The translations under genes were made by a program, and so were the position numbers. The notes beneath the pieces were generated by a model, which searched no databases, had not been told where the DNA came from, and was given only the letters and a program-made list of their open reading frames with translations. A stretch of DNA of 64,000 nt. Source: Enterobacteria phage vB_EcoM_IME540. The stretch is from the sequence record MT150133.1, one strand, 5' to 3'. Below, one piece after another: positions 1 to 38,597 of this stretch. Within the stretch, counting starts at the first letter, position 1. Every line of letters starts with the position of its first letter.

Positions 1-8
1 ATATTCAT

Positions 9-149
9 TTATTCCTCACCTTCATGTTTATGAGCAATTTCTTCGAATTCGCTGTCACAGTCTAAACAGGTTGCGTTATCCCAAGCATCAAATACCGCTT
101 GGTCTTCATAGACTGAACAACCACATACTACACATTCAAATTCTTCCAT
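9..149 (-). CDS. small Cys-rich hypothetical protein (46 aa, below ORF-track cutoff)
   Basis: ATG at 147-149 directly abuts stop of upstream ORF (TAAATG); GAGGA SD upstream; Cys pairs CxxC and CxxC suggest a zinc ribbon. Confidence 0.35.
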   Translation of the reverse strand: MEEFECVVCGCSVYEDQAVFDAWDNATCLDCDSEFEEIAHKHEGEE

Positions 150-344
150 TTAGATTTCCTCAATGCGAGCATCATGTTCATAAACTTCTACGTCGTCGAC
201 ATAGGCCTTGACTAGAATACTATTGACTTCAGCGAATTGGGTAGCCACCCACACAATATCGTTTTCACGCACTGAAGCTTCTTTGGTAGCGGTATCACCG
301 TTGGCGAAATGGCCGACAAATTTTACTTTAATTGATTCAGACAT
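150..344 (-). CDS. small hypothetical protein, possibly Dmd-like (T4 61.5 region)
   Basis: 64 aa ORF next to gene 41 where T4 has the 61.x/dmd genes; size similar to Dmd; similarity recalled, not verified. Confidence 0.4.
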   Translation of the reverse strand: MSESIKVKFVGHFANGDTATKEASVRENDIVWVATQFAEVNSILVKAYVDDVEVYEHDARIEEI

Positions 345-662
345 TTAGATTTCCTCGCAGAAGGCCCATTCAGCATGATAAACCGTAGCGCCTTTAGTAT
401 CATTTAAACAAACCACATCCACCGGAGCAATTACACGATAAAGACGGGGTTCTCCTCCCACTGAACGAGCTGCACGTCCAGCATAAATCTTAGCCAAACC
501 GATATCTTCAGTAAAGAACACACGATTTAGGTTTTTCTTACGACCGGTTTCAGACAGAACTCCTGTTTCCTCAGGAGGACAAAGCATATTACCGATATTA
601 GCGACACTACAACTTCCATGGTAATACACTTTATATTCTGCTTTACAGTCGATGGTTTTCAT
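345..662 (-). CDS. hypothetical protein (105 aa)
   Basis: ORF-track start is TTG; trimmed to ATG at 660-662 with GGAGA SD; early promoter element immediately upstream. Confidence 0.5.
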   Translation of the reverse strand: MKTIDCKAEYKVYYHGSCSVANIGNMLCPPEETGVLSETGRKKNLNRVFFTEDIGLAKIYAGRAARSVGGEPRLYRVIAPVDVVCLNDTKGATVYHAEWAFCEEI

Positions 663-679
663 TTTGTTCTCCAAGTTGA

Positions 680-716
680 TAGGTCTATAGTATCACGCCT
701 ACAGGAGATGTAAACC
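680..716 (-). promoter_or_regulatory. T4-type early promoter element (GTTTAC-N17-TACTAT)
   Basis: rc reads GTTTACATCTCCTGTAGGCGTGATACTATAGACCTATCAAC; member of a repeated family; sits upstream of ORF 345..662. Confidence 0.6.
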
Positions 717-724
717 CTTAAAAA

Positions 725-746
725 CAAAAAAGGAGCCGAAGCTCCT
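725..746 (-). terminator. intrinsic terminator hairpin (UUCG tetraloop) downstream of gene 41
   Basis: minus strand AAGGAGC-UUCG-GCTCCTT followed by T-run. Confidence 0.5.
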
Positions 747-2185
747 TAAAATTTGATAGATGCTGCTAAATCGTCCAAATCACTTCTATTAACACGCGTC
801 TGTCGATTGACCTCGGCCTGGCGATTCATCTCACCTGTAGCCTCACGAACAGTGTTCACTGGGCCTGGGTTGGAATCATCTTCAACTTCGTACCAACGTT
901 GATTTCCTTTCTTAACGCCAATCTTAAATTTGTTGTAGTAGCTCTTATCGCCATAACGAGATTTAAGCTGCTTAACCATCTGCATACCCATCTGAGCGAA
1001 CTCTTCTGTCTCGACCACACCCAACATGAAGTCTGCAGTATGTGCAATACCAAAGGATTCAGCAATATCGGCCATATCGATTTCGGCTGCAACGTTCGCA
1101 CCACGAGTAGTCTGGGCTGCAGTCCACAACAGTAATTTCTTCTCTACTGCAAGTCCACGTAGTTCTTCAGCAACCATCTTAATCAATCCGTAACTGTTTT
1201 CAGAGAAAACTTTCGTACGAGACGATGCACAGATAGCCAAGTAGTCAACGATAACGACCTGTGGGACAAAGTTTTGTTTGAGCTTGTATTCGTTTAATAA
1301 TGCACGGAATGTATCGGCATTAGCACCGCCAGTAGGATACTGTTTAATCTTTAAACGACCCAAGGTAGCAGTTGAACGCCATTTATCCATCTTAGCTTTA
1401 TATTCAGGCCAAGAGACGTGACCATCGTCAATATCGTCTAGTGATACATCCAGAAGGTTGGCATCGATACGCTTAGCACATACTTCCTCTGCCATCTCCA
1501 TGGAGATATAAAGAACATCGTAACCCGATTGAAGATAATCAGCAGCCAATGAACACAGACCCAGAGACTTACCTACGTTTGTTCCTGCCAACAATACGTT
1601 TTCAGTACCAAACTCAGCACCACCCTTGGTAATCTTATTCAGAATATTAAGACGGAATGGAACCTTACGTGCTTTATCAGAATAACTTTTGAATCGTTCT
1701 TCATAGTCATCCATCCAGTCATGACCTAATTCAGAATCGAAACAAATCGATAATGCATCACGCATGATATCTGGAATAGCACCAATACCTGGAAGTTTTC
1801 TATTTTGTTGCTCAACTGGAAGGTCGGCATTAGTTTGGATTTCAATGATTTTTGAAGTTGCATTATACATCGCTGCTTTCTGAACGTATTTCTCCGTCTC
1901 TTTAACCAACCATTCTTGGTCTTCAGGCCCGGAGTTCAGCGAACTTAAAAGCTCTTTAGCGCCTTGATGTTCAACTTCTGAAAGCGTACTGTTATCTAAT
2001 GCAATGCTCAATGCGTTCTTAGAAGGCACTGCATTATATTCATTGACGTGTTTTTTAATTTCTTTGAAAAGGGTCTTTGCAGGACCCTGGTCAAAATAAG
2101 AATCATTCATATAAGGCCAGACCTTAGTGAAATAATCACTATTGCCTAGCAGTTGAGCCAAAATAGTTTCTACCACTTCCACCAC
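746..2185 (-). CDS. 41: replicative DNA helicase gp41
   Basis: 479 aa; near-collinear with T4 gp41 (MVE...FxKVWPYM..., Walker A GTNVGKS, C-terminal LDxLAxxxKF). Confidence 0.95.
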   Translation of the reverse strand: MVEVVETILAQLLGNSDYFTKVWPYMNDSYFDQGPAKTLFKEIKKHVNEYNAVPSKNALSIALDNSTLSEVEHQGAKELLSSLNSGPEDQEWLVKETEKYVQKAAMYNATSKIIEIQTNADLPVEQQNRKLPGIGAIPDIMRDALSICFDSELGHDWMDDYEERFKSYSDKARKVPFRLNILNKITKGGAEFGTENVLLAGTNVGKSLGLCSLAADYLQSGYDVLYISMEMAEEVCAKRIDANLLDVSLDDIDDGHVSWPEYKAKMDKWRSTATLGRLKIKQYPTGGANADTFRALLNEYKLKQNFVPQVVIVDYLAICASSRTKVFSENSYGLIKMVAEELRGLAVEKKLLLWTAAQTTRGANVAAEIDMADIAESFGIAHTADFMLGVVETEEFAQMGMQMVKQLKSRYGDKSYYNKFKIGVKKGNQRWYEVEDDSNPGPVNTVREATGEMNRQAEVNRQTRVNRSDLDDLAASIKF

Positions 2186-2499
2186 CTCTTAGATTTAATT
2201 TTATCCAGTTCTTCTTGTATTTGCATTGTAACACATTTTTCTACATGAAGCGCTAGCTCTTCTTTTCGGTCTTCGGAAGGTGTTCCGAAATCAACCGACA
2301 CTTTTCCATCTTTCTCAATAACAATATTCATCACATAAACGATGTGAGCAGTGCCATCGGGTAAAGTAAGCATAATTTCCTGCTTAACCGATCCCATTGA
2401 CTTACGGATTATATCTAATGATTTCTCATAATAACGAGGGTCACTAGGACCCTCTTCGGTATCTTTAACGAAATTATCTAAATCAGATAAATCAGTCAT
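2170..2499 (-). CDS. 40: gp40-like head vertex assembly protein
   Basis: 109 aa ORF at the syntenic position between 41 and uvsX; size matches T4 gp40. Confidence 0.55.
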   Translation of the reverse strand: MTDLSDLDNFVKDTEEGPSDPRYYEKSLDIIRKSMGSVKQEIMLTLPDGTAHIVYVMNIVIEKDGKVSVDFGTPSEDRKEELALHVEKCVTMQIQEELDKIKSKRWWKW

Positions 2500-3664
2500 C
2501 TAAATCCATCTCTTCCAAATCGTTTTCGATATCAGCGGCGCTTTGGGCATTACCACCTAATTTAACAGCAACGTTCTTAGAGACACGAGAGTTAATAAGG
2601 TCGTTCACTGCATCGTCAACTTCTTTAATAGAATTAATTGCACCGAGCTTATACTTATTCTCGATTGCTTCACGGAACGGGGCATGTTTAAACAGCGGTC
2701 CCCAGAACTCGACACAATCGGTAGCTTTAGCACGCCATGCTTTTTCTTCTTGAACCATTTCGCCTGTGGTTTCGTCAAGGAATGCACGATTATACCAGCC
2801 AGCTTTAGGTTTCACGACAAAGCCAATATCAGTAGCCATTTCAAGCAATCCACTGAATGGGTCGATACCACCTTCGAAGTTAACGGTGATAGGGAACGTT
2901 GATTTCTCTTTAACCGTACGAGATTTCTCAGCCTTCAGTGTGAAGTCATAACCAGTGAGCTCGGTACCATCTTTAACCTGACGTTTAGAGATAAAGAACA
3001 CGGTAGAAGCAGAGTACAGAATACCAGTACCACCACCCATAATCTCTTTAGGATACATTCCACCAATTTCCATAGCCGTGTGGTTGATTGCTACACAAGG
3101 GATATCTTTGATAGTCAGATAAGGTGTTACGATACGGAACAGAGATTTCAGTGACTTAGCACGGGTCATATCACCTACAACTTTCTCGTTCAAAGCATCT
3201 TCGGTTTCTTTCTTAGAAGCAGTGTTACCAATGGAGTCGATAAAGATAATAACCTTTTCGCCACGAGTAATTTCTTCTAACTGGTTGGTCATATCAACTT
3301 TAAGCTGTTCGACTGACTGGATTGGTGTATGAACCACACGTTCCAAATCAACACCCATCGAACGGAAATAAGATTCTGAAGCACCAAACTCAGAGTCATA
3401 GAACAAACAAATTGCGTCTGGATATTTCTTCATATATGCCGCAACCATGGTAAGTCCAAACAACGTTTTAAAGTGTTTAGATGGAGCAGCAAAGATTGTC
3501 AAACCTGATTGTAAGCCTGCATTCAACGCACCGCCTAATGCAATATTCAGCATAGGGATACGAGTAGGAACTTCGTCACGACCATTAAACAATTTAGATT
3601 TGGTCAGGTCGGCGGTCATTTTAGAAGTAGAAGCTTTAATCAAACGGGATTTTAAATCAGACAT
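2492..3664 (-). CDS. uvsX: UvsX recombinase (RecA-like)
   Basis: 390 aa; N-terminus MSDLKSRLIKASTSK and overall sequence match T4 UvsX. Confidence 0.95.
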   Translation of the reverse strand: MSDLKSRLIKASTSKMTADLTKSKLFNGRDEVPTRIPMLNIALGGALNAGLQSGLTIFAAPSKHFKTLFGLTMVAAYMKKYPDAICLFYDSEFGASESYFRSMGVDLERVVHTPIQSVEQLKVDMTNQLEEITRGEKVIIFIDSIGNTASKKETEDALNEKVVGDMTRAKSLKSLFRIVTPYLTIKDIPCVAINHTAMEIGGMYPKEIMGGGTGILYSASTVFFISKRQVKDGTELTGYDFTLKAEKSRTVKEKSTFPITVNFEGGIDPFSGLLEMATDIGFVVKPKAGWYNRAFLDETTGEMVQEEKAWRAKATDCVEFWGPLFKHAPFREAIENKYKLGAINSIKEVDDAVNDLINSRVSKNVAVKLGGNAQSAADIENDLEEMDLDD

Positions 3665-3741
3665 TATATTTTTCCATAGGCATCATTATATTTTACTCAC
3701 GTTTTAAGATAGGGTAATTATATCACTTCACATTTACAGCG

Positions 3742-4635
3742 TTAAAGGACCACGTCCTCATAACTTGGCATTTCGTGCTCAGAATGGATGTGGGCACCGA
3801 AATAAATGAATTCAGCCAGACCAGGATGGAATACTAAACTGGGATTCTCATGATAAATGATATGAGGTCTTGATTTCAGAATCTGATAATATTCAACCTT
3901 ACTCGGTTTGAATTTAATAATCTCTACATCAGGACGATGGTCTTCACGCTTAAATGAATCATTCGGATCGGTGATATAAAGGCGAGAACCTTCAGCCGCA
4001 GCTTGGTCTACAACTCTTTCGAATTGATAGCATTTATCTGAGATACGGAATGGATGGAAAATACCATCAATTTTAATAGGCGCTAGACCTTCAGAGTAAC
4101 GCTCAATTACTGCGGGATTAATTACCTTTTGGTCTACAAAAATCTTATCAGAGGACGCACCTCGTGACACCAGGACGTCTTTCTGACATTGATTCAAGAC
4201 TGTAGTATAAATCGAACGTTCAACTGAGGACACGTCGGTATCAATAAACTCGTCGATATAATAACGAGGAACTTCAGGGTCCATTGTAATGTTAAAGTTG
4301 AATTGTACAGTCTGAGTGCCATCATAACCTGTGATATCGGTTACCAATCCTGAGCAGTCATAGTATTCGATTAACGAATCAACAACGAACTCGTTTTCAG
4401 ACCAAAAATGTTTACGAGTTTCATAAGCATTTTCTTTATACCAAAGCGGTACAAAATTCAGTTCAGGAAATAATTCAATGCATTCTTTGATATCGCTCGA
4501 ATTTCTAGGATAAGCCAGATAATCACCTGGGCAAGCACGGTTTAAATGGAGTTGAAAATTACCGTCCTTAAGGACGGCATATTCACCTGTTTCGTAACTA
4601 CGCATACTGAAAATAGGAACGATAAACAAACTCAT
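3742..4635 (-). CDS. hypothetical protein (297 aa) at the T4 beta-gt position
   Basis: long ORF translationally coupled to gene 42 (ATGA overlap at 4632-4635); no resemblance to T4 beta-glucosyltransferase that I can recognise. Confidence 0.6.
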   Translation of the reverse strand: MSLFIVPIFSMRSYETGEYAVLKDGNFQLHLNRACPGDYLAYPRNSSDIKECIELFPELNFVPLWYKENAYETRKHFWSENEFVVDSLIEYYDCSGLVTDITGYDGTQTVQFNFNITMDPEVPRYYIDEFIDTDVSSVERSIYTTVLNQCQKDVLVSRGASSDKIFVDQKVINPAVIERYSEGLAPIKIDGIFHPFRISDKCYQFERVVDQAAAEGSRLYITDPNDSFKREDHRPDVEIIKFKPSKVEYYQILKSRPHIIYHENPSLVFHPGLAEFIYFGAHIHSEHEMPSYEDVVL

Positions 4636-5330
4636 TTCAGGAATCCTCGAACGTAGTCAAAATCACGTTCAAATACGTGTGCACTAACCATAGTATGGGA
4701 ATACGTACCCAGACCAACACCACACTGTTCAGCAATAAAGGCCATCAGTTTACCCTGCAGATAGAAATCCAGCTGCATAACAATAGCACAGTTCTGTGAA
4801 CGCATATGGGTATGTGCATAAAGACGTCCATCACGAATATAATATGTCACTGAATCAGTACATGGATATTCTAAGGATTCGTCAGAATCAAGGAGGGCTT
4901 GGTCTTGTTCTTGGAGAATTTGGAACACAACTCGTCTTGAGTTAGGCTTCTCTTTAAGCTCTTTAAGTAAGGCTGGGAGTTGGGCCACAATTCTAGGTCC
5001 ATAGAAAGTGTTGAAGTTTGCAGGCAATACGTCACTTTTCGGCTTATCAATGAACTTAGCAACATTAGGGTATTCCTTAAATGCTTCGGCGGCGTCAGTA
5101 CCACCAGAAATCATAAACTTCCAGAAAGATTCGGCATAATCATAGTTGATACGATTAATACGAGGGTCGGTGAATTTATAGGTGCTTGCATCCAGTACTT
5201 CTACCGAAGCAGAACCAATTTCATAACAACAGCCGATACGAGAATCAACTGCAAACTGTGGAGCTTCCAGGATTTCTTCGTTCATTTGCTTAAACGCGTT
5301 TTCAAAACTAACAGCGGTAATGTGTTTCAT
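4632..5330 (-). CDS. 42: dCMP hydroxymethylase (thymidylate-synthase fold)
   Basis: 232 aa; PCTDSVTYYIRD and RSQN motifs parallel T4 gp42 CTNTVQYLIRD / RSND; syntenic with T4 gene 42. Confidence 0.8.
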   Translation of the reverse strand: MKHITAVSFENAFKQMNEEILEAPQFAVDSRIGCCYEIGSASVEVLDASTYKFTDPRINRINYDYAESFWKFMISGGTDAAEAFKEYPNVAKFIDKPKSDVLPANFNTFYGPRIVAQLPALLKELKEKPNSRRVVFQILQEQDQALLDSDESLEYPCTDSVTYYIRDGRLYAHTHMRSQNCAIVMQLDFYLQGKLMAFIAEQCGVGLGTYSHTMVSAHVFERDFDYVRGFLK

Positions 5331-5863
5331 TTATTCACCTTATTTTCAATATATTCATTCAGACGTTTTAATTCTACCATATCGACGTTAAGCAAGTTAT
5401 TATGGCCGTCGTGATTTAAGATTTTAAACACGTTTTCAAAACATGTTTCATATTGCCGGATAGTTAGGTTGAACTCATCTTTGGTTAATTTAATAAGGTC
5501 ATCTTCAAAGTCTTTATCCAGTGGATTACGGGTTAAAATAACCTCAATAATATTGAATTCAGATTTAAACCCTTTCCAATCTTCCAGTTCTACATAAGGG
5601 TCCATTTCACCACGAAGGAATCCAGAGTAAACAATATTACTAGGATACCCACGGTCTAAGATGTAGACAAAATTAGGGTCTAAAAACTTATACAACGTCT
5701 CGACTAAAGCCTTGTCATTATCAGTCCCTAATGAAATGCATTTGCCATTAATCTTTTTAGGGAAATCAATAAGACGATATTTCTTATCAGATAAAAGTGA
5801 TTCAATTAAAGTAGACTTCCCGGAATTATCCGGGCCGTCGATAACAATGATTTTTGGTTTCAC
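5327..5863 (-). CDS. P-loop kinase, thymidylate-kinase-like
   Basis: Walker A IVIDGPDNSGKST and TMK-like DRGY motif (YILDRGYPSNIVYSG); 178 aa. Confidence 0.65.
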   Translation of the reverse strand: MKPKIIVIDGPDNSGKSTLIESLLSDKKYRLIDFPKKINGKCISLGTDNDKALVETLYKFLDPNFVYILDRGYPSNIVYSGFLRGEMDPYVELEDWKGFKSEFNIIEVILTRNPLDKDFEDDLIKLTKDEFNLTIRQYETCFENVFKILNHDGHNNLLNVDMVELKRLNEYIENKVNK

Positions 5864-6234
5864 GGATGATATGCCTTATAGGTTTCAAGAGTTCCTTCAC
5901 GAACCATTTCTTTAAAGTGGTCAGGACGGATTGCTCGGTCATCGATGATAAAAGTATAACTCGGCTTATGTGTAAGCAGATTGTGATATTTCAATCCAAT
6001 CTTTTCAAGGTTCTTAACTAATGCAGGAACTACTTCAACCAAGATTCGACCTGGGCCGCATGAAGTCATACCACGGGCAGTGAACAAGGTAATCTCGTAC
6101 CCTTCATCATAAAGCTTATTAATCACGGACACCATTTCGGTGTCCGGTTTAAAGTTTTCGTAATCACGGTCATCTTGCCAGTGAGTAATGGTATTATCGA
6201 TATCAAAACACAGATGCATTAAATTTTCTTCCAT
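5860..6234 (-). CDS. HAD-superfamily phosphatase (small, capless)
   Basis: all four HAD motifs: FDIDNT, LFTAR, HKPS, FIIDDR; alternative ATG at 6219 couples to upstream stop (TAATG). Confidence 0.65.
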   Translation of the reverse strand: MEENLMHLCFDIDNTITHWQDDRDYENFKPDTEMVSVINKLYDEGYEITLFTARGMTSCGPGRILVEVVPALVKNLEKIGLKYHNLLTHKPSYTFIIDDRAIRPDHFKEMVREGTLETYKAYHP

Positions 6235-7892
6235 TGTTTGTGGAGTTCGGTAGAACCTGTAGGTTTATATTTTACACCAGTTTCCTGGTCAAGCAAAACC
6301 CACTTATCAGGACAACGAGTGATAATTTGAGCCGTGATAGGGTCGCGAACTTCATCAACGAATTCACCTGTGATAAGCTTACGCTTACGAGGATGCCGCT
6401 TCAGCAGCACACTCAGTTGATATAGCCCATTGTAATAAGCGCCCAGAGCTTTCAGAGGGTTATTTTTAAAGTAACCTGCCAATGCCATCCAGATAACAGC
6501 AATCCAGAGCTTGTGCTTAAATGTACACATCGGAATATCATCTAAAGGCATAACCTTTTCAATATCAACGAATACACGAGTTCCGTTACGAGTTAAGCCA
6601 CCCCATAGAGGGTCAGAGTTAAATTTGTCATAACCATCGATAGAATAAAGCACCTTAGCTTCATCATAAATCGCAGGGCCTTTAGAACTATTACCAAAAT
6701 AACCACGTGGGTCGATGATTTTAATATTACCTTCGTCCGACAACATAATATTACTGTAGTGCGGGTCGCCATGAATAAGTTGGTACGGTTCTTTATGTTC
6801 AGACAGAATTTCTAAGGCGTGACGAAGAAGTTTTTCTGGGTCGCCTACCTTGAAGTCGTTAACATGGGTAATACCCTGTGGAGCAAAGCCTTCAATCAAT
6901 CCGGCAATAGAAGCATTACGAATAAGGACCTTGTCCAATACTTCTTTCTTAACATCAGAATACCATTGCTCATCGGATGGATTATCGATAGTTCCACCGA
7001 ATGAACGTAATGCACTAATGACCTTATAAACCATGAGGACTTTAGTTTCTTTAGACATAAACCGATAGGCGTCTGCCATGGTGCGACCAAAGATACGTTC
7101 CATTTTAATGAATTCACCTGGAGCAAAGTCTACAATGCTAGGAACGAATTCAGAATCAATAGAATTGTACCAATTGATTTCTTTAGATTGGATTTCTTTA
7201 CCTAATTCGTTTGTAGGTACTTTAATAGCTAGATTCTCAGTGAACTCTAATTTATTAAATTCACGGTTAATTTCAGAATCTTCATGGGCCTTAGCCAGTT
7301 TCAGTTTGTCACCAACATCAACTACAAAGTCTAACTTACGTTCAGTCAAATGGACCATTGAATCCAGGTTGTCAGCAAGGTCTTCACCATAATTAGAACG
7401 GTCGAAACCTGTCCAATTAGCCACCTGATACAAGCCAACTACGCCACCACCGGTACCAATTTCACGCAAGTACGGTTCTTCAAATGTAAAACGACAGTCA
7501 GTCCCATAGGTATAACAGTAGTCGTTATCCCACTCAACTTTATGACCTTCAGGAATAATATCACACCAGTTAAACAAGACATTGTGCCCAATGATATCTT
7601 CGGCAATGCAATCGATAGCATGAGCCGAACCATTGGCAACATCAACGTTACGAATAGTGAATTTAGGCTTATCACTATTAATCATGTTAATGGATTTAAT
7701 ATAGCCTTTAACGAGGTCGTTAAATTTGCTGTGAATAACCAGAATAATTTCATCTGATTGATTACTATACAAATCATACAAATGTTTTAATACAGTATGT
7801 TGTTTGTAGTTAACCAGTACCTTCGGGATTTCGTTGGTAATTGGATACAACCGTGAGCCAAGACCCGCGCCTAAAATAACAACCTTTTTCAT
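6219..7892 (-). CDS. bifunctional nucleotidyltransferase (N-terminal) / APH-ChoK-like kinase (C-terminal)
   Basis: N-terminus VVILGAGLGSRL (sugar-1-P/LicC-type NTase glycine loop); C-terminus LIHGDPHYSNIM...IIDPRGY (Brenner HGDxxxxN kinase motif); start trimmed to MKKVVILG with GAGGAA SD. Confidence 0.7.
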   Translation of the reverse strand: MKKVVILGAGLGSRLYPITNEIPKVLVNYKQHTVLKHLYDLYSNQSDEIILVIHSKFNDLVKGYIKSINMINSDKPKFTIRNVDVANGSAHAIDCIAEDIIGHNVLFNWCDIIPEGHKVEWDNDYCYTYGTDCRFTFEEPYLREIGTGGGVVGLYQVANWTGFDRSNYGEDLADNLDSMVHLTERKLDFVVDVGDKLKLAKAHEDSEINREFNKLEFTENLAIKVPTNELGKEIQSKEINWYNSIDSEFVPSIVDFAPGEFIKMERIFGRTMADAYRFMSKETKVLMVYKVISALRSFGGTIDNPSDEQWYSDVKKEVLDKVLIRNASIAGLIEGFAPQGITHVNDFKVGDPEKLLRHALEILSEHKEPYQLIHGDPHYSNIMLSDEGNIKIIDPRGYFGNSSKGPAIYDEAKVLYSIDGYDKFNSDPLWGGLTRNGTRVFVDIEKVMPLDDIPMCTFKHKLWIAVIWMALAGYFKNNPLKALGAYYNGLYQLSVLLKRHPRKRKLITGEFVDEVRDPITAQIITRCPDKWVLLDQETGVKYKPTGSTELHKQWKKI

Positions 7893-7952
7893 TATCTGTT
7901 CCTCAAGTGAATGTAGGTACATTATACACTATTTTTAATAAATTGGTATTGC

Positions 7953-8453
7953 TTAAATCTTATCTTTACCGATTTCAATACACTGTTCTATTGCCGCCGG
8001 TGCTTTGGTCTTGAGCTTATCGATTTGTTTCTTATAATCACGAGCTTTACCGAAGCTCTCGGTTTCGAGCATTTCGTAATAACGAGCCTCGTGGATGGAA
8101 ATCTGTAGATTGATATGGTTTACGCACATCGCATACAGTTTCTGCTTTTTGTACAAATCATCTTGACGCTTCATTTCTGCCTGGTGTTTGGCTAGTACCG
8201 CTTCACGCTTGGACTCTTGTTCACGTTGGAATTCGATTTCTTGTTGAGCATATTTTGCACAGTTATTACCGCATTGATTATTAGCTCGGGTGTACACAAG
8301 TCCAGAACCTGCACGGAATTTCATTTCGCCATCGAATTGTTTCTGTTCAGCTGCGATACGAGCTTTACCAACTTCATCGGCCGAAACTGTATCACCATAT
8401 TGGACCGCGCAACCTGATAGGAGCATACTCATTGCGATAATTAACTTTTTCAT
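7953..8453 (-). CDS. lipoprotein (signal peptide + lipobox LLSGC)
   Basis: MKKLIIAMSMLLSGC lipobox; charged coiled-coil-like mature part; adjacent to imm. Confidence 0.65.
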   Translation of the reverse strand: MKKLIIAMSMLLSGCAVQYGDTVSADEVGKARIAAEQKQFDGEMKFRAGSGLVYTRANNQCGNNCAKYAQQEIEFQREQESKREAVLAKHQAEMKRQDDLYKKQKLYAMCVNHINLQISIHEARYYEMLETESFGKARDYKKQIDKLKTKAPAAIEQCIEIGKDKI

Positions 8454-8460
8454 AATATCC

Positions 8461-8598
8461 TCAATTAAAACAGTTATACTTAATTTGTGCTATAAGAATA
8501 ATCCATCCAATGATGAGTGTCGGAATCATTGGGGGAATTGCCACTGCCCAATAAATGGTAAAGGCAGTCATTATAAGAAATAAAATAATTATTTTCAT
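8461..8598 (-). CDS. small hydrophobic membrane protein (45 aa, below ORF-track cutoff)
   Basis: ATGA overlap with imm stop at 8595-8598; MKIIILFLIMTAFTIYWAVAIPPMIPTLIIGWIILIAQ is almost entirely hydrophobic. Confidence 0.4.
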   Translation of the reverse strand: MKIIILFLIMTAFTIYWAVAIPPMIPTLIIGWIILIAQIKYNCFN

Positions 8599-8831
8599 TG
8601 CTTAACAATAATGATTTGTGCGTTTGATTTACGTTCAGCGACGATAGCCCAGATTAAAGCCACTACCCAACCAATCATCGTCCAGCCTAACAGGAGATTA
8701 AGGAAGAAAATTCCGACATTACTACGAGTGCCTCGCAGAAGAGCCAGAATCCATGGTAAAAAGTAACCGATGAACATAATAACCAGAGAACCGAATCCTA
8801 AAACACCAGCACTAACGATTAAAGCTTCCAT
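8595..8831 (-). CDS. imm: superinfection immunity protein Imm-like (two TM helices)
   Basis: 78 aa membrane protein with GWVVALIWA-type motif; syntenic with T4 imm beside gene 43. Confidence 0.6.
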   Translation of the reverse strand: MEALIVSAGVLGFGSLVIMFIGYFLPWILALLRGTRSNVGIFFLNLLLGWTMIGWVVALIWAIVAERKSNAQIIIVKQ

Positions 8832-8849
8832 TGTAATTTCCTCATGTAG

Positions 8850-8892
8850 TTGATAGGAAGGATACTACCACGTTCCTTGTGGTATGTAAACA
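8850..8892 (-). promoter_or_regulatory. early promoter-like element upstream of imm (degenerate copy)
   Basis: rc GTTTAC-N17-TAGTAT with TG two bases upstream of -10. Confidence 0.4.
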
Positions 8893-8893
8893 C

Positions 8894-11605
8894 TTAAAAG
8901 TCGAACATATCAAATAATGTTGCTTTTTTCTCGTAGTCGATTTTAGCAGACTCAGTAAAACCGGTCAGAGGTTTGATAAAGGTCTTTTGGAACAGTACGT
9001 TGTAGTCCATCCAACGGAGGACTTGGTCACGAATCTGAACCGGAAGTTCAATACCTGACGGCCATGCCATACAAGCTTCACCAAACGGGTTGCCTTCTTT
9101 AAGTGGCAGTACATATACCTTTTCACCATCAACGATACGAGGCATAGTCAAATCACCTGCAGAAGCACGCATGTAAGCTAAGCAACCTTTGATGTGGTAT
9201 GGACATTTAGAACCCGGGAATCCACCTTCATTATATTTCTCGATGTTGTTAGCACTGGATACTGCTGCAATGCTTACATAATCGAGTTCGTTAAATTCCT
9301 TATTAAACTGTTTGAAATATTCTTGCAAAGATGCCTCGCCTTCCTGAAGCATACGACGGATACATTCCTTCAGAGCTTTCTGAACTGCTTTAGGTGTACT
9401 TGATTTCTGAGTTTCGAGACCCATGATTTTCAAGTGTGGTTCAGCATAACGAGTACCTTCCATGTCCCAAACGTTAAGTGCATAACGTTTCTTGCCTGTC
9501 CAGAATCCACCAAGGCCTTTAGAACCAAGTGGAGGACCTGCGATAGCTTCTCGGTCCATGAACATCAAGTGTTGTTTGTTGTTCATGTATTCGCACATCT
9601 CACGGAAGCCTGCATCAATAGCTGGTTCCATACGTTCACGTGCAAATTTATCTAAGAAGTCTACCCAGTGGTTAGTATCACGGAATTTATCTTCGCCTAC
9701 TTTATTGATGATTGCATCTGCCTTAACATAAATGGAGTCAGTATCACCGTAGAGCACGAACTTCTGGTTTTCAGTCTTACACACGCTATTCAGATATTCG
9801 TTAACCTTACGTTCAATCCATTGGAGGGCCATTTGACCAAACAATGTGATTGCAGTTGCGTTCCTGAGGTCATAGTAACGGAACCATACGTTACCAAGTG
9901 CACCATAAAGGGAGTTGATAAGCAACTTACGGTTAATCTGAGCAGTGTTACCTGCAACTTCAGTGAGCTCGGCTTTCTTCAACATTTCTCTTAAAGAAGG
10001 CGCTGACAGTGCTTTAATCTGGGCTTTTATTTCGTCAGAGAAGTCAAAACGATAATCGATATCCAGTGGACTATCAACTGAGAGATTAGGATTTTCCAAT
10101 GCTTCTTTAATTAACTCACCATTACGTTGAGCTGCAAGCATGTAACCTTTATGTTCTTTACGCTGCAAGAATACCTTGGTGATTTCTGTCGGAATCACAC
10201 CTTCACGGTCTTTATAGTACATCATGCCGTTAGGAGAGCAACTGTAGGTGTCGCTAGGACGCTGAGCAGTTCCGGCAATATATTCATGTATCGGTGCGTT
10301 AGCGAATGTCCCTGCGATGGTCTCTGGGCTTATATTCACTTGTCGAATGATACTCGGATACAGAGATGTAAGGTCGAAACTCATTACATATTTGTAAGCG
10401 TTAGGAATCGGTTCCTTAACGAAAGCACCAGGATAAGGTTGGACCACGTGCGAACGAGCTTGTGGAATTACCTTGCCTTGTTCTTTAAGGCTATTAAAGA
10501 TAATAGCGTCCCAAGTCTTAATTGGGCTGAACACCGACTGAATCTGCATCTTGGCATAATAACCCATGTCCAAACTCAGAAGAATGAACTGACGCTTCAT
10601 ATCAATCTGCACTACACGATATACGTCGATAATGTTATAGGAAATATATCGTTGGTGGTTCGTCTCACGTAACTTGGAGATTGGGCCATCATATTTCAAC
10701 TTACCTACTTTCAATTCATATTCAGAAACATAATCCAGAGAATAAGAAGGCTGGTTGGTGAAGCTGAATTTTTTATAGAGGTCGATATAATCCAGAACAG
10801 AGATACCGAACAATGTAATGATTTCACGAGCACCGTACATGTTCTCAATAACTTTAACACGAGTTTTACGATGTGGGCTTAATCGCTTAGCAGTGTTCTC
10901 ACCGAACAGATTTTTCAGACGGTTATAAACGTACGGTACGTCAAACGACTCAACGTTCCATCCAGTCAAAATCACAGGAGTTTTCTGTTGCCAGAAATTC
11001 AAGTACTCAAGCATCATTTCTTCTTCAGAATTAAACGGAAGATAAACGATTTTGTCAATGATTTCCTGTGGAACTTCGTCACCACCTTCGTCTTGGAGTT
11101 TCTCAGCGATTTTAATCGACCACTCTTCAACAGTACCATAAGGCGAAACTAAAAGGTCGAATACATAGAATTTATCGTCAATCGAGTCGTAGTGGGTAAT
11201 GGCATCGATAGGATGTTTAGCCTGAGCTGGTTCAGGGAATCCATCAGGAGATGTTACCTCGATGTCGAAGTTAGCAATACGAATCTTAGAAGAATCATAT
11301 TTGATTTCTTTACGATAGGTATCAGACAAATAGGCTAATTTATAGTCGTCCATACCCAGGGCTTCGAGACCCATATCATCCATACGTTTCATCCATTGGG
11401 ATGCATCACGCATAGAATCGAATTCTTTCTTAACACAACCCTTACCATAGATATCAATGTATTTTACGGCTTGCTCTGGATTAGCATGCATAAACATTGT
11501 AGGCTTGTATGGAACTTCACGACTACGTTCGTTACCATTTTTATCGATGTAACGTTCGAGAATATTATCACCGATTTGTTCGACTGTCAAATAGAATTCT
11601 TGCAT
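8894..11605 (-). CDS. 43: DNA polymerase gp43 (family B)
   Basis: collinear with T4 gp43; ORF-track TTG start trimmed to MQEFYLTVEQIGDN (T4 starts MKEFYISIE) with AAGGA SD. Confidence 0.95.
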   Translation of the reverse strand: MQEFYLTVEQIGDNILERYIDKNGNERSREVPYKPTMFMHANPEQAVKYIDIYGKGCVKKEFDSMRDASQWMKRMDDMGLEALGMDDYKLAYLSDTYRKEIKYDSSKIRIANFDIEVTSPDGFPEPAQAKHPIDAITHYDSIDDKFYVFDLLVSPYGTVEEWSIKIAEKLQDEGGDEVPQEIIDKIVYLPFNSEEEMMLEYLNFWQQKTPVILTGWNVESFDVPYVYNRLKNLFGENTAKRLSPHRKTRVKVIENMYGAREIITLFGISVLDYIDLYKKFSFTNQPSYSLDYVSEYELKVGKLKYDGPISKLRETNHQRYISYNIIDVYRVVQIDMKRQFILLSLDMGYYAKMQIQSVFSPIKTWDAIIFNSLKEQGKVIPQARSHVVQPYPGAFVKEPIPNAYKYVMSFDLTSLYPSIIRQVNISPETIAGTFANAPIHEYIAGTAQRPSDTYSCSPNGMMYYKDREGVIPTEITKVFLQRKEHKGYMLAAQRNGELIKEALENPNLSVDSPLDIDYRFDFSDEIKAQIKALSAPSLREMLKKAELTEVAGNTAQINRKLLINSLYGALGNVWFRYYDLRNATAITLFGQMALQWIERKVNEYLNSVCKTENQKFVLYGDTDSIYVKADAIINKVGEDKFRDTNHWVDFLDKFARERMEPAIDAGFREMCEYMNNKQHLMFMDREAIAGPPLGSKGLGGFWTGKKRYALNVWDMEGTRYAEPHLKIMGLETQKSSTPKAVQKALKECIRRMLQEGEASLQEYFKQFNKEFNELDYVSIAAVSSANNIEKYNEGGFPGSKCPYHIKGCLAYMRASAGDLTMPRIVDGEKVYVLPLKEGNPFGEACMAWPSGIELPVQIRDQVLRWMDYNVLFQKTFIKPLTGFTESAKIDYEKKATLFDMFDF

Positions 11606-11639
11606 TTCATTTCCTTTATAGACGAGTGATTGTCTTTTG

Positions 11640-11686
11640 TTTGTTGATGAATCATTATACTCCAAAAGGGACCGAAGTCCCTTTGC
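11640..11686 (-). promoter_or_regulatory. UUCG hairpin plus TATAAT upstream of gene 43 (candidate terminator / translational-operator region)
   Basis: minus strand AAAGGGAC-UUCG-GTCCCTTT then TGGAGTATAATGA about 45 nt before the 43 start. Confidence 0.4.
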
Positions 11687-16925: not shown

Positions 16926-17175
16926 CGTTATAAGCATCCTTGATGCATGATTCAGCCATATGAATTAATGTTTCTGGAGTATCATCTACCATTACATTAA
17001 AGCTAAATTCCACAGCCCAATCGGTAGCAACATAGACTTTAATAAGCTCGTTGGTATCGCGAGTGCTCACGGCTTCAAACCAGAACTTGATTGTACTAGG
17101 CTGTCCATCGTCATCAATAACGATACAGTCGTGTTCTAGTTCGAGGCCTGATTTTTTGAATTCATCTAAAGTCAT
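16912..17175 (-). CDS. hypothetical protein (T4 46.1-like)
   Basis: 87 aa ORF between 47 and 46. Confidence 0.5.
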   Translation of the reverse strand: MTLDEFKKSGLELEHDCIVIDDDGQPSTIKFWFEAVSTRDTNELIKVYVATDWAVEFSFNVMVDDTPETLIHMAESCIKDAYNDEDF

Positions 17176-18194
17176 CGTGTAACCTCATTATAAAGTTGTG
17201 CAGCCATGGTCTTAAGGGCTTTAACATCGTCTTCAGTGTGGCCGTCAGGAAGGGCATCGATATAATCATACATCATATCCAAGAGGGACTTGACTTCATC
17301 TTCCTCTTCAGAATCATCGATATCAACACTGTTATCTACCTTAGACACAATACGTAAAGAATGGACGACCTTTTCAAGCTCTGATTCGAACTTGGTAAGC
17401 CCGTCATCAATTTTATCGACTATAACACGAACCGCAATATTTGTAAAATCTTTGTAATCGATAGTCGCATTCGGATAATGAATCTTACGATGCCAACAAG
17501 TTTCATTGATGATGAAATCCATTTTATGGGTTTCTGTATCGAAAATCCAGAAGCCACGAGGGTCGTTCTCATCACCTGCAGTCAGGGTCCATGGCGTACC
17601 AATATACTTAACGTTTGCTGCATCAGAAATAGTGTGGAAGTGCCCAGACCATACCTGCTTATACTTCTTAAGGAAATCAGGTTCTAAACCATGAGATTTC
17701 ATTCCTTTATAGAAATAGAAACCATTTAATTCCCAGTGACCTATACAGAAATCTGCTGTGGTATTTTTGATATGGTCCATGATATCGGTCGTGTTTTCTT
17801 CACACATCCATGGAATCAAATCAATTTCGGTGCCATCAAAGTTAACCGTAGTGGGTTTCTCAATAACCTTGATATGGTCATATTTACCCAGAACTTCAGA
17901 AGCAGCGTTCGGTGTCAAGGTATTTTTGTAGTGGGCATCGTGGTTGCCTACGACAGTATACATGGTAATGCCGTTGGTTTTAAGCAAATCTGAAATATGT
18001 CTAGCAAATTCCATGCACTTATGAGTAATTGCTTTACGAACATCAAATATATCACCGTACTGAATCCATACAGTAATGCCATTTGCTTTAGAATAATTGA
18101 TGGCATCTTTGATGCCGGCCAATTGGATGTTTTGCACCCAAGGGTCGTCGTTCTTCACTCCAAGGTGCCAGTCACCCGTATTAAGAATTTTCAT
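17172..18194 (-). CDS. 47: recombination nuclease subunit gp47 (Mre11/SbcD-like)
   Basis: phosphoesterase motifs GDWHLG, GNHD, GHxH; start trimmed to MKILNTGDWHLG (T4 MKILNLGDWHLG). Confidence 0.9.
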   Translation of the reverse strand: MKILNTGDWHLGVKNDDPWVQNIQLAGIKDAINYSKANGITVWIQYGDIFDVRKAITHKCMEFARHISDLLKTNGITMYTVVGNHDAHYKNTLTPNAASEVLGKYDHIKVIEKPTTVNFDGTEIDLIPWMCEENTTDIMDHIKNTTADFCIGHWELNGFYFYKGMKSHGLEPDFLKKYKQVWSGHFHTISDAANVKYIGTPWTLTAGDENDPRGFWIFDTETHKMDFIINETCWHRKIHYPNATIDYKDFTNIAVRVIVDKIDDGLTKFESELEKVVHSLRIVSKVDNSVDIDDSEEEDEVKSLLDMMYDYIDALPDGHTEDDVKALKTMAAQLYNEVTR

Positions 18195-18798
18195 TACGTA
18201 TTCGTTCCCACATTTTGGAGGCTGCTTTAGAAGCAGAGCCAGGAAGTTTACCTTTGACCCACCCATCAGGAATATTAGATGGGTTAATCAGTTTATGTTC
18301 TATTCCGTTATTATACCACTTCCTGCCCTTATTATGACTAGATGCTTTATAATTAGGTGAACGACCTTCTACGTATCCTTCCGGGACTGTAGGTGCAAAG
18401 GTTTGTTCCAATGTAACAGGATTATAGGAATGAATATACCCTTTAGCATTATGAGAGCCGTAAAGAGGGTGTTGCTCTTTAGGTAGCGAAAGCCCAAAGA
18501 ATCCTTTAGGAGCTGCGACAGCCCTATTAAAGAATAGAGGATTTTGGGCCGCATCGGTTCTTAACTGGTACATTCTTTCAGCTTCTAAAGCCTCTTCTCT
18601 TGTAGGGTGTTCACTTACAATACACGAGTCAAATAATTCTGGATGCTCTAAAAGCTCATTTTTATAGATTTCTTTATATGCTTTAGAAAGGACACTCCCG
18701 TGATATCCTTTTAAATGCTTCTCTAAAGTGGTAGACCCTATATAAAACGGTGGAAGCTTAGTCCCGGAATATATTGTCAGGTATGTGATGTATTTCAT
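18181..18798 (-). mobile_element. homing endonuclease-like gene (GIY-YIG-like N-terminus, NUMOD3 C-terminus)
   Basis: FYIGSTT near N-terminus; C-terminal KGRKWYNNGIEHKLINPSNIPDGWVKG matches the NUMOD3 DNA-binding motif; occupies the slot where T4 has alpha-gt. Confidence 0.6.
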
Positions 18799-19567: not shown

Positions 19568-19834
19568 TTAATCCTTTGGAGTCAATTCAATAGTGAAGTA
19601 GAAATTAGCGTTCTCAACATGATAACGGTAATCTACGTTATTGTCAGGAGAAGTGAATTCAATATTCCTGACGTTAAGTGGGTCAATATCAATAGGAAGA
19701 CCTTTAACATCCCGTAATATCAATTTAATAAAATAAGGGAGTGCTTCAAAGTCTTCCATTCCATCTAAAAGTGGAGTGATATTAATCTGATGTTCCATAT
19801 AAAAAATCCAGTTCACCAACTTTAGGTTCGGCAC
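19568..19834 (-). CDS. hypothetical protein (start uncertain)
   Basis: 88 aa ORF overlapping the 3' end of gene 55; ORF-track start is GTG. Confidence 0.45.
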
Positions 19835-20339
19835 TCTTATCAGACCCTGGCGCTTTAGTTAAAGAGGTTTCATACTGTGTCATTTTATCGTAGATATCTT
19901 GGATAAAGGTTTCATCTGCAATACCTACCATATCGTCATCATTACTGTCATAGACATTATGGACGAAGTAGCTATATTTCTTTGCCATTTCTTTACGTTC
20001 TTTTTTGATACGCTGAACGAAGGCATTAAAACAAGCCATAGTGATATATGCATGCGGGTTGTCGTATTTTGTTTCGTCGAAGTTGTGAAGACCTTTAATC
20101 GAAGCTTCGATTCCATCAGCAATCATTTCTTGCTTCCAAGATTGGGTATATCCTGAGAAGTTGAAACGTTTACTTAGTCCTTCAGCAATGAGCATAATAG
20201 CCAAGCCGATAACGTCGTTCTGGCGAACTATTTTATTAGGATCGGTATTTTCTCTAAGCTCTGTTTTCCATTGGGTAATAGCTTTCAGAAGCTCCTTATT
20301 ATTTACATAGTTATTTTTAGTCAGTTTAATTTCGGTCAT
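19782..20339 (-). CDS. 55: late-transcription sigma factor gp55
   Basis: 185 aa; NYVNNKELL...[46 protein letters not shown] matches T4 gp55. Confidence 0.95.
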
Positions 20340-25627: not shown

Positions 25628-26634
25628 TTCAGCAGCTCCAGAGCCTGTTCAAGACGGTCTAAACGATTGGTAGACTCTTCCCAAAGTTTCTTGGCGGCGG
25701 TATATTGGCCAGTCAGTTTTTTGTTGATAGCAAGGGCGTCTTTATACGCTTTTTCCAAGGCAACGACTTCCGGTAACTTGGATTTAGTAATTGGTGTAGG
25801 GGCCATGATAGGGCTGTTCAAGTCGTTAATCAAGTCTTCTAATGTAGCAGGCTCTTTATCAGTGTTCACAATTTCCTCACATTTTTCTTTGTAAATTTCA
25901 GCATCAGTTTTTGGAACGGTACATTTGATTTCACGGACTGTTACTAAGACCTCATATCCTTTCCAGCCTAAGTGGTGTTTAACTTCTTGGGTCTCATATT
26001 TCTCTACGGTATCCATCAGAGCTAAAGCTTGTTCGATAGTATTCAAGGTATCGTAAGCAATATCTTGATACTTTACAACTTCCGCATCATCTTTAGGTTT
26101 CCTATTAGGTGACCAAATAACAGAAATAATAGCTTTTCCTTTATAACTATTTGTTTTAATCATGCAATTAGCCATCGGGTGAATAGTACGACAATCACCG
26201 GAAACTATAGTTTTAGAGGCCGCTTTGAGAATTAATGCAGAGTTAGCCTTGAATTCGCTAACCCAACGTTGCGGAAATAAACTATTAGGGTCCATACCTT
26301 TAATTTTGATATAACCTTTTATGGTATCACCAAACCATTTGTAGCTAACAACACGGTTGGAACCTGGATATTTCTCTTTACCGAACTCAGAAAGGATGTC
26401 CTTATTGACCAGGCGCGAAAGCAGTCGAGAACCTTTAAATGTTTTAATGATATCATGAATGCACAAACGGCCTGCAATCTTTTCGATTTCAGCTTTGAAA
26501 CAGCGCGATAATGCATCATCAATTTGGTCGACCCATTTATTGATATTAGAAACTATTACCTCGTATGGGGTTAACGGAGGGGTGTTGGTAGTGATATACG
26601 TAGTAAAGGCATTGATGTATTCAGTACGAGTCAT
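25624..26634 (-). CDS. hypothetical protein (~336 aa) with C-terminal coiled coil
   Basis: start trimmed to MTRTEYINAF with GAGGAG SD downstream of the promoter at 26662-26690. Confidence 0.55.
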   Translation of the reverse strand: MTRTEYINAFTTYITTNTPPLTPYEVIVSNINKWVDQIDDALSRCFKAEIEKIAGRLCIHDIIKTFKGSRLLSRLVNKDILSEFGKEKYPGSNRVVSYKWFGDTIKGYIKIKGMDPNSLFPQRWVSEFKANSALILKAASKTIVSGDCRTIHPMANCMIKTNSYKGKAIISVIWSPNRKPKDDAEVVKYQDIAYDTLNTIEQALALMDTVEKYETQEVKHHLGWKGYEVLVTVREIKCTVPKTDAEIYKEKCEEIVNTDKEPATLEDLINDLNSPIMAPTPITKSKLPEVVALEKAYKDALAINKKLTGQYTAAKKLWEESTNRLDRLEQALELLK

Positions 26635-26661
26635 GATATTCTCCTCAGTAGATTTAAAAAG

Positions 26662-26690
26662 ATTATACTCCATCCGTCCTTGGATGTAAA
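26662..26690 (-). promoter_or_regulatory. early promoter (GTTTAC-N17-TATAAT)
   Basis: rc GTTTACATCCAAGGACGGATGGAGTATAAT. Confidence 0.55.
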
Positions 26691-26692
26691 CA

Positions 26693-27574
26693 TTATTTTA
26701 GAGCTAATACTGCCGCGCTAAGCTTGTCACGCTGGATTTCCATGTTCTTGATGCGAATCAATACGTCTTGAATACTCTTTTTCTCATCTTCGATCTGGCC
26801 GTTTAAACGGTGGATTGATTCCTGGAGGTGGTCCTCATGATACTTCTCGATAGGTTTCATCGTAGGGTTAGTAACAACCAAAGAATTATCAGGTTTAATT
26901 TTCCAATGATACGGTTCAGAATTGAATGGACTCGGTACAGCCGTGGTTTTGAATCTGTCATAGGCTGCATACTGGCCTACGCTGTCACATGATACTGCAG
27001 AGATACGTCGTTCCATTTCCGGTTCCTTTTGTTGGGATTGATAAGGGGCATAAGACAAAAGATATTCACGAGTTAGTTTAACATTAAAATACACTGCATC
27101 GGGCCGTCCGGAACAATCAGCATATTCATCTGTTGTAACCTTATATGATTCTACAGCCTTAATACGGGTCATTGCTTCCCTGAATAAGGTTTCAAATGCT
27201 TCACGAAGGGCCTTATTACCTTTTGAGGTAGGACGGAAACGAACTTGAATGCCGTCATTCAGAATATTAATGACTAGGTTACGAGCCGTAAAATTAATAT
27301 TCTTGATATTGACAGGAACCGTAGAAATACGTCCCGCGGTAGCCAAGAGGTCTTTGATATTAGCTCGCAATGTTACACCAAACAGGTGGGCTGGGCCACG
27401 GCAATAATCGTTCAAAGAACTAATATAAGTCCCTTTACGACCTACACCATAAGTATAATTACCATTACAAATATGGCCGAAGTCGGCCAGCCGATCGATA
27501 GCGATACGCTTGGTTACACCAAAATCATATCGGGAATATTCTTTACGTGTTTTAATGTTCATATTAAAGTCCAA
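26693..27574 (-). CDS. hypothetical protein (293 aa)
   Basis: coding-strand ORF; C-terminal heptad-like region. Confidence 0.55.
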   Translation of the reverse strand: MDFNMNIKTRKEYSRYDFGVTKRIAIDRLADFGHICNGNYTYGVGRKGTYISSLNDYCRGPAHLFGVTLRANIKDLLATAGRISTVPVNIKNINFTARNLVINILNDGIQVRFRPTSKGNKALREAFETLFREAMTRIKAVESYKVTTDEYADCSGRPDAVYFNVKLTREYLLSYAPYQSQQKEPEMERRISAVSCDSVGQYAAYDRFKTTAVPSPFNSEPYHWKIKPDNSLVVTNPTMKPIEKYHEDHLQESIHRLNGQIEDEKKSIQDVLIRIKNMEIQRDKLSAAVLALK

Positions 27575-36124: not shown

Positions 36125-36133
36125 ATTACCTTC

Positions 36134-38590: not shown

Positions 38591-38597
38591 ACTGTCC

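Follow-up and report, generated by a model that had tools for sequence, protein, structure and literature searches.

A five-gene operon at positions 3742-7922 of the sequence analysed here (the window, 64,000 nucleotides of Enterobacteria phage vB_EcoM_IME540, MT150133.1) is likely to give the phage DNA arabinosylated 5-hydroxycytosine (5hoC) in place of cytosine, using arabinose-5-phosphate from the host and a single transferase, with a mono-arabinosyl product. The window comes from a T4-like phage of the genus Dhakavirus, and 3742-7922 is 99.5% nucleotide-identical to Escherichia phage QL01. An earlier note on this DNA had described, between uvsX and imm, a dCMP hydroxymethylase gene packed with a kinase, a phosphatase, a fused nucleotidyltransferase and kinase, and an unknown protein; the open reading frames (ORFs) are all present on the minus strand, and Pfam and PHROG agree with the domain calls. 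The cluster is a system of the RB69/HY126/DLP3 type. It is already known and not new, since the system is the same and Dhakaviruses have been counted as carriers on the basis of synteny that "strongly suggests" the pathway (Lee et al. NAR 2026, PMC13326640). Its five genes are:

3742-4635, minus strand: 297-aa protein, a predicted GT-B glycosyltransferase (GT1), from a structure model and orthology to RB69 gp47:46
4632-5330, minus strand: thymidylate synthase (TS)-family protein of 232 aa (Pfam PF00303, E 6e-14)
5327-5863, minus strand: thymidylate kinase (TMK)-like P-loop kinase of 178 aa (phrog_761 "thymidylate kinase", E 2e-39)
5860-6234, minus strand: HAD phosphatase of 119-124 aa with a DIDNT motif, starting at 6234 or 6221 (TAATG overlap)
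6219-7922 (likely 6219-7892), minus strand: fusion of an NTP_transferase and an APH kinase domain, 557-567 aa (Pfam E 2.5e-8 and 9e-6)

Each of the five proteins has a one-to-one ortholog in the RB69 (gp45-gp55)/HY126 (Afh) cluster. A blastp comparison with the RB69 proteins, taken as translations of its genome, gave 78% identity for the TS homolog (gp48), 69% and 63% for GT1 (gp47 and gp46), 62% for the HAD phosphatase (gp51), 44% and 41% for the nucleotidyltransferase (NTase)-kinase fusion (gp53 and gp52) and 37% for the TMK-like kinase (gp45). Both clusters also lie between uvsX and the DNA polymerase gene and share the D169N signature of the hydroxylase described below. These orthologs bear out the earlier proposal that the phage has its own pathway to a nucleoside diphosphate sugar (kinase, phosphatase and nucleotidyltransferase) for DNA hypermodification. 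Stop and start codons of successive genes overlap (TAATG, GTGA, ATGA and ATGA), and the five genes therefore look like one translationally coupled unit. A scan of 3400-9000 for sigma-70 promoters and terminators returned sites no more frequent than in shuffled sequence. At least 80% of 3742-7922 is covered in one match by 51 phage records.

Does the TS homolog, which stands in the position of T4 gene 42, make 5-hydroxymethylcytosine (hmC)? It is most likely an O2- and flavin-dependent dCMP 5-hydroxylase, that is, a 5-hydroxy-dCMP (5hodCMP) synthase, because it is 25% identical to T4 gp42, 78% identical to RB69 gp48 and has Asn at position 169 (E. coli ThyA numbering). RB69 gp48 and DLP3 gp80 are TS homologs that make 5hodCMP, incorporating 18O from O2, and flavin mononucleotide (FMN) co-purifies with them; Asn in place of Asp169 marks the enzymes that perform this reaction, and all nine further D169N homologs assayed made 5-hydroxydeoxycytidine (PMC13326640). 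We aligned the window protein with E. coli ThyA, T4 gp42, RB69 gp48 and PDB 9iqu using MAFFT (the length and key residues of the ThyA sequence were checked). At the ThyA positions, C146 is kept and the changes L143E, N177D and D169N are found; position 169 is Asp in both T4 gp42 and ThyA. The published signature of 5hodCMP synthases (Cys146, Asp177 for dCMP specificity, and Asn169) is present and therefore argues that the protein is not a gp42-type hydroxymethylase; neither Asp169 nor closeness to T4 gp42 was found in it. The TS homolog is 79% identical to the crystallised protein of PDB 9iqu, and the entries 9iqu, 9iqc and 9ir2 match it at E 1e-124. At 98.7% identity to RB69 gp48, these entries presumably represent the HY126 enzyme.

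These residues bear directly on the view of the earlier note that a T4-type dCMP hydroxymethylase makes hmC, to which a sugar other than glucose is then attached. The gene does occupy the gene 42 site and belongs to the TS family, several GenBank records label it dCMP hydroxymethylase, and arabinosyl-hmC was reported for RB69 in 2018 (PMC6024577). We nevertheless find this explanation very improbable in view of the identities given above and of the Asn at position 169. Moreover, RB69 gp48 makes 5hodCMP with 18O2, and the RB69 structure was revised by nuclear magnetic resonance and mass spectrometry: the DNA of RB69 and of Acinetobacter phage DLP3 contains mono- and poly-arabinosylated cytidines joined by an ether to 5hoC, not hmC (PMC13326640). 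An independent study of a Mosigvirus likewise found 5-arabinosyl-dC and called the earlier RB69 assignment erroneous (PMC13390438). Of the suggested correspondence to arabinosyl-hmC systems, the arabinosyl part holds, through the RB69 system and its five orthologs, and the base has to be revised to 5hoC. The raw-sequence reasoning of the earlier note was thus largely right, and its error about hmC mirrors database annotation and the 2018 literature.

The 297-aa protein, which had been noted without identity in the place of beta-gt, occupies 3742-4635 as described and can now be assigned. It has no sequence match in Pfam, NCBIfam or PDB, and its fold was revealed by structure prediction only. 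Its AlphaFold model (mean predicted local distance difference test score 94.8, from an alignment of 40 database homologs) confidently models as a GT-B glycosyltransferase with a GT4-like, retaining-type fold, and a Foldseek search, the kind of structure search that had been proposed, agrees with GT-B. It is the ortholog of DLP3 gp79 and of RB69 gp47:46; in RB69, a sequencing error has divided one ORF into gp47 and gp46. The gene for this "arabinosyltransferase 1" adjoins the hydroxylase gene, and the enzyme is predicted to add the first arabinose to the 5-OH of 5hoC. The base-proximal sugar is alpha-linked (Lee et al., PMC13326640), which fits the retaining-type fold of GT1. Another 297-aa ORF, QL01 gp086, was considered as a GT1 paralog and rejected; the corresponding window ORF is a DUF7235 protein and unrelated.

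A sugar other than T4-type glucose, which had also been proposed, is supported by tblastn with T4 alpha-gt and beta-gt as queries, which gave no match in the window or in the whole QL01 genome. The slot between genes 47 and 55, where T4 has alpha-gt, holds an ORF annotated as an HNH endonuclease in QL01 and otherwise small ORFs, as the earlier reading had it. QL01 encodes dCTPase, alc, denA and denB, as expected for full replacement of cytosine; its dCTPase gene, whose product supplies dCMP, sits upstream of the region corresponding to the window.

How would the sugar donor be made? The fusion protein carries the Pfam NTP_transferase domain at residues 13-110 and the APH domain at residues 356-427, with the motifs GAGLGSR and HGDPHYSN. 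Its description as a nucleotidyltransferase fused to an APH-like kinase holds, with a corrected start: the gene most likely begins at ATG 7892 and not at ATG 7922 of the maximal ORF. Read directly, the context of ATG 7892 has a GAGG ribosome-binding site and ATG 7922 overlaps a TATAAT hexamer, and 7892 is also the start that fits RefSeq and the PHROG alignment. The protein is the ortholog of AfhE/RB69 gp53:52 and is predicted to combine an arabinose-5-phosphate 1-kinase with a UDP-arabinofuranose pyrophosphorylase. The HAD phosphatase is capless, as had been stated, because 119-124 aa leave no space for a cap domain. Sequence matches in the structure database are PDB 9iqw (E 1e-51), presumably AfhF since its accession is adjacent to 9iqu/9iqc/9ir2, and 1xpj (E 7e-12). 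The phosphatase is the ortholog of AfhF/RB69 gp51 (the AfhF of HY126) and is predicted to remove the 5-phosphate of arabinofuranose-1,5-bisphosphate. Genes of both the AfhE and the AfhF type, as required for the predicted synthesis of UDP-arabinofuranose, are hence found in the cluster. In the work of He et al. (Nat Chem Biol 2026), to the extent that it is related in PMC13326640, HY126 AfhE converts arabinose-5-phosphate to the 1,5-bisphosphate and later yields UDP-arabinose, and the HAD enzyme AfhF strips the 5-phosphate. Could these two proteins instead serve an unrelated pathway, for capsule or for LicA/LicC-type phospholipid head-groups, with no link to DNA? The HAD protein matches the NCBIfam capsule biosynthesis phosphatase family TIGR01689 (E 3e-14), and there is a weak match to the CTP:phosphocholine cytidylyltransferase 1jyk (E 1e-3). 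This is hardly credible, however, for genes that appear translationally coupled to the TS homolog and GT1, that belong to a set syntenic in more than 350 phage genomes, and whose HY126 orthologs make UDP-arabinose in that same account of He et al.

The NTase-kinase falls into two clades, with 71-82% identity within the Dhakavirus/Marfavirus/Bragavirus type, 56-59% within the RB69/Thanatos/DLP1 type and 44-48% between them; no such split is seen in the TS homolog, GT1 or the HAD phosphatase. The clades match two cluster layouts, in which the TMK-like gene lies either after GT1 (RB69, Thanatos, DLP1) or before the TS homolog (Dhakavirus, Marfavirus, Bragavirus), and their match to the presence of a phage isomerase is imperfect. 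Does the split signal a different or additional sugar on the 5hoC scaffold, drawn from another host pentose phosphate or added by an unrecognised second transferase? Besides the split itself, the three genomes of the window's clade that were examined all lack a phage arabinose-5-phosphate isomerase near the cluster, and Pootjesviridae carry hexoses on the same scaffold (PMC13326640). However, we sought altered catalytic motifs in the window's clade and found none; each recognisable motif of the two domains also occurs unchanged in the orthologs from RB69, Thanatos and DLP1, and the fixed differences between the clades are scattered along the aligned proteins. GT1 shares 66-69% of its residues with the RB69 enzyme, the hosts make arabinose-5-phosphate for the synthesis of 3-deoxy-D-manno-octulosonic acid (Kdo), and the Thanatos locus also has no isomerase yet carries the other NTase-kinase type, so the correlation between clade and isomerase is imperfect. 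A different sugar signalled by the split thus finds no support in these alignments, and we rate a different or additional sugar as quite improbable.

From the orthology, domain content, active-site signature and fold that we observed, we infer the actual DNA chemistry of this phage, in which arabinose on 5hoC would arise as follows. The TS homolog would hydroxylate dCMP at C5 using O2 and flavin, and the resulting 5hodCMP would be raised to the triphosphate by phage gp1 and/or the TMK-like kinase and then by host nucleoside diphosphate kinase, and incorporated by the phage polymerase. In parallel, arabinose-5-phosphate would be drawn from the host KdsD/GutQ pool, which is suggested by the lack of a phage isomerase; the supply of this compound by KdsD and GutQ for Kdo synthesis is established E. 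coli biochemistry. The APH-like domain would phosphorylate it at C1, giving arabinofuranose-1,5-bisphosphate, the HAD phosphatase would take off the 5-phosphate, and the NTase domain would join the arabinofuranose-1-phosphate to UTP, giving UDP-arabinofuranose. The GT-B enzyme would finally move the arabinose onto the 5-OH, and mono-arabinosyl-5-hydroxycytosine is predicted as the product since only one transferase is present. RB69 gp3 (the second arabinosyltransferase), gp50 (U32-like) and gp55 (isomerase) as tblastn queries gave no match in the window or the complete QL01 genome, and a Pfam search of the larger ORFs in the window yielded no further glycosyltransferase.

Several points weigh against this pathway. 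A nucleoside analysis of any Dhakavirus was not found in the searchable literature, and the phage was seen over 64 kb, so that statements about the rest of its genome rest on QL01. A second transferase may have escaped recognition in the sequence searches. The window NTase-kinase stands in a separate clade, 44-48% identical to the enzymes of phages with proven arabinose, which leaves room for a different pentose. The Thanatos homolog of GT1, TH1_063, is reported to have UDP-xylose pyrophosphorylase activity in vitro (PMC12838424). Finally, purified single DLP3 transferases did not arabinosylate 5hoC-containing DNA in vitro (PMC13326640), so the acceptor of the first transfer could be either a nucleotide or DNA.

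This last point bears on the role of the TMK-like kinase, whose GPDNSGKS P-loop and DRG motifs, phrog_761 match and RB69 ortholog agree with its earlier description. It most likely phosphorylates the modified dCMP as a 5hodCMP kinase. The window also encodes a gp1-type kinase outside the cluster, which shares 252 of 253 residues with QL01 gp145, annotated as a deoxynucleoside monophosphate kinase. In vitro, gp159, its ortholog in RB69, turns 5hodCMP into 5hodCDP (PMC13326640), and the window enzyme probably belongs to the nucleotide branch with the same reaction. If gp1 already phosphorylates 5hodCMP, the TMK-like kinase has no obvious job, unless the first sugar is put on 5hodCMP before replication, the kinase acts on the glycosylated nucleotide and the polymerase uses a glycosylated dNTP. 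The TS homolog, GT1 and TMK-like genes are adjacent in two otherwise different jumbo-phage-sized contigs that share little else, and also in Pootjesviridae (Table 1 of PMC13326640); single transferases were inactive on 5hoC-containing DNA, and Lee et al. cannot tell nucleotide-level from DNA-level transfer (PMC13326640). All characterised phage DNA glycosylations, in T4 and its relatives, are nevertheless post-replicative, DLP3 gp76 and gp77 act on DNA (PMC13326640), and the co-location is explained equally well by a kinase that simply phosphorylates 5hodCMP. We regard pre-replicative transfer as unlikely, and favor the simpler view that the TMK-like enzyme is a 5hodCMP kinase.

In the jumbo-phage-sized contigs, the distant GT1 homologs lie between the TS homolog and the TMK-like kinase (383-kb contig, 6426-9576; 356-kb contig, 1-9682), and a Flavodoxin_2 (FMN reductase-like) gene is near them. 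The 356-kb contig also carries genes for a SIS isomerase and an APH kinase. This suggests a conserved core of hydroxylase, transferase and kinase with its own flavin supply.

The comparison with related phages places the window cluster among several variants of one system. RB69 has the isomerase gp55, the second arabinosyltransferase gp3 and the U32-like protein gp50, all of which the window and QL01 lack. The TMK-like gene is upstream of the TS homolog in the window and downstream of GT1 in RB69, the NTase-kinases belong to different clades, and RB69 DNA carries one or two arabinoses where one is predicted for the window phage. Marfavirus (Klebsiella phages VAC36 and F48) and Bragavirus (Proteus phage SJ_PmiM) have the same order of NTase-kinase, HAD phosphatase, TMK-like kinase, TS homolog, GT1 and uvsX, an NTase-kinase of the window's clade (82% and 72% identical, respectively) and no phage isomerase; unlike the window, they have a U32-like gene followed by a chorismate mutase gene between the TMK-like gene and the TS homolog. 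Among these variants, the Shewanella phage Thanatos offers the best model of a cluster with one transferase. Its single GT1-type transferase is 54% identical to the window GT1, and its DNA carries one pentose per cytosine (PMC12838424), described as mono-arabinosylated by Lee et al. (PMC13326640). It differs from the window in its RB69-type gene order and NTase-kinase clade and in possessing the U32-like and chorismate mutase genes. The transferase gene, TH1_063, lies at 6995-7897 of the Thanatos locus (54% identity to window 3742-4635). The literature conflicts on its product, a pyrophosphorylase in PMC12838424 and an arabinosyltransferase in Lee et al. (PMC13326640); in Thanatos, the bifunctional NTase-kinase TH1_060 would be expected to act as the pyrophosphorylase.

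More distant systems follow related designs. T4 gp42, alpha-gt and beta-gt use the same logic, in which a TS-family enzyme yields a hydroxylated dCMP that passes through kinases to GT-B glycosylation, and gene 42 lies in the same genomic slot. Rhizobium phage RL38J1 (Pootjesviridae) has the same triad of kinase, GT1-like transferase and D169N TS homolog, but it carries hexoses (galactose and glucose), lacks the NTase-kinase/HAD branch and belongs to another phage family (PMC13326640). A Rhizobium phage gave a weak match to GT1 in our search (25% identity).

Across the phage collection, we detected homologs of GT1 in 354 records, of the NTase-kinase in 367, of the isomerase in 270 and of the U32-like protein in 222. 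The gp3-type transferase, in 212 records, is confined to Mosigvirus-like coliphages and Acinetobacter phages. The isomerase is an accessory (270 of about 354 GT1-carrying records) and is absent from the Marfavirus, Bragavirus and Thanatos loci; therefore, it does not strictly define the cluster. With neither isomerase nor second transferase nor U32-like gene, the Dhakavirus cluster is, as far as sequence searches reach, the most reduced version found. There is a small chance that the five-gene module is a functionally distinct minimal variant, lacking the U32-like protein and chorismate mutase of its enteric-phage relatives, relying wholly on O2 and on host arabinose-5-phosphate for DNA modification, and possibly using another pentose. 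If so, it would mean an undescribed glycosyl-5-hydroxycytosine, or a failure to modify DNA in the anoxic gut.

What follows from this assignment? As a discovery it has little weight, as studies of RB69, HY126, DLP3 and Serratia phages had elucidated the pathway in 2025-2026. A cluster that has a single transferase and neither an isomerase nor a U32-like gene offers a natural test of which components the pathway can do without in E. coli. A cytosine that bears a sugar influences how DNA responds to restriction digestion, nanopore base-calling and CRISPR editing and how sensitive it is to type IV restriction, and such phages are often isolated for therapy.

In the related phages, the U32 "peptidase"-like protein is better conserved than any other protein of the cluster, the hydroxylase included, with 79-86% identity between Mosigvirus, Marfavirus, Bragavirus and Thanatos. 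Its gene lies at the following positions of the locus sequences:

RB69 gp50: 26492-27661
Marfavirus VAC36: 8675-10077
Bragavirus SJ_PmiM: 3485-5278
Thanatos: 8462-9852

The protein is absent from the window, QL01, all Acinetobacter phage records and Dhakaviruses. The C-terminal end of RB69 gp50 has a CxxxxCxxxCxxC motif. A small chorismate mutase gene follows the U32-like gene in Marfavirus, Thanatos and Bragavirus (Pfam CM_2, 34-47 bits against a cut-off of 27 bits); none was found in the window or the full QL01 genome, and RB69 gp49, tested as the counterpart of this chorismate mutase, proved not to be one. Prephenate is the product of chorismate mutase. The U32 family includes RlhA, TrhP and UbiU/UbiV, O2-independent hydroxylases that use prephenate (PMC6599085, PMC10990095), whereas Lee et al. 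called gp50 only a "sugar or heterocycle reductase" (PMC13326640). Because U32 hydroxylases depend on prephenate and not on O2 and the chorismate mutase gene is adjacent, the gene pair suggests that phages infecting facultative anaerobes possess a second, anaerobic route to 5hoC, which phages of the aerobe Acinetobacter would not need; the absence of this route from Dhakaviruses is unexpected. In a 26-kb metagenomic contig (7496-11220), the neighbors of a GT1 homolog are a TMK-like kinase, a GT47-like protein and a U32-like protein that shares 50% identity with RB69 gp50, and no TS homolog occurs within 8 kb on either side of the GT1 homolog. The U32-like protein may replace the flavin hydroxylase there.

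The remaining features of the window that were used in this analysis are:

746-2185, minus strand: gene 41 helicase
2170-2499, minus strand: gene 40
2492-3664, minus strand: uvsX
7953-8453, minus strand: 166-aa ORF with a lipoprotein signal MKKLIIAMSMLLSGC (phrog_1754, function unassigned in PHROG)
8461-8598, minus strand: 45-aa hydrophobic ORF (phrog_3610)
8595-8831, minus strand: imm (Pfam Imm_superinfect, E 5e-18)
8894-11665, minus strand: DNA polymerase
17172-18266: gene 47
18181-18798: 205-aa ORF between genes 47 and 55, corresponding to the ORF labelled HNH endonuclease in QL01
19782-20339: gene 55
54478-55239, minus strand: gp1-type deoxynucleoside monophosphate kinase, outside the cluster

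The 166-aa and 45-aa ORFs separate imm from the modification operon, at the site of the isomerase gene in RB69. Over its first 17 kb, the window is 98.7% identical to QL01. Relative to that genome, the window has four insertions, at about 35395-36266, 37779-38602, 50769-51799 and 57835-58465, and at least two of them encode homing endonuclease-like proteins (one ORF with NUMOD3 at 35387-36124, another with GIY-YIG/NUMOD3 at 51033-51698).

Public annotations of the cluster are misleading (QL01, NC_028847, gp041-045; VAC36; others), and correcting them is one practical use of the assignments made here. The hydroxylase gene is recorded as "thymidylate synthase" or "dCMP hydroxymethylase" and the HAD phosphatase as "phosphoheptose isomerase" or "polynucleotide kinase", while GT1 appears as "hypothetical", "RNA polymerase binding protein" or, in some records, "cysteine desulfurase".

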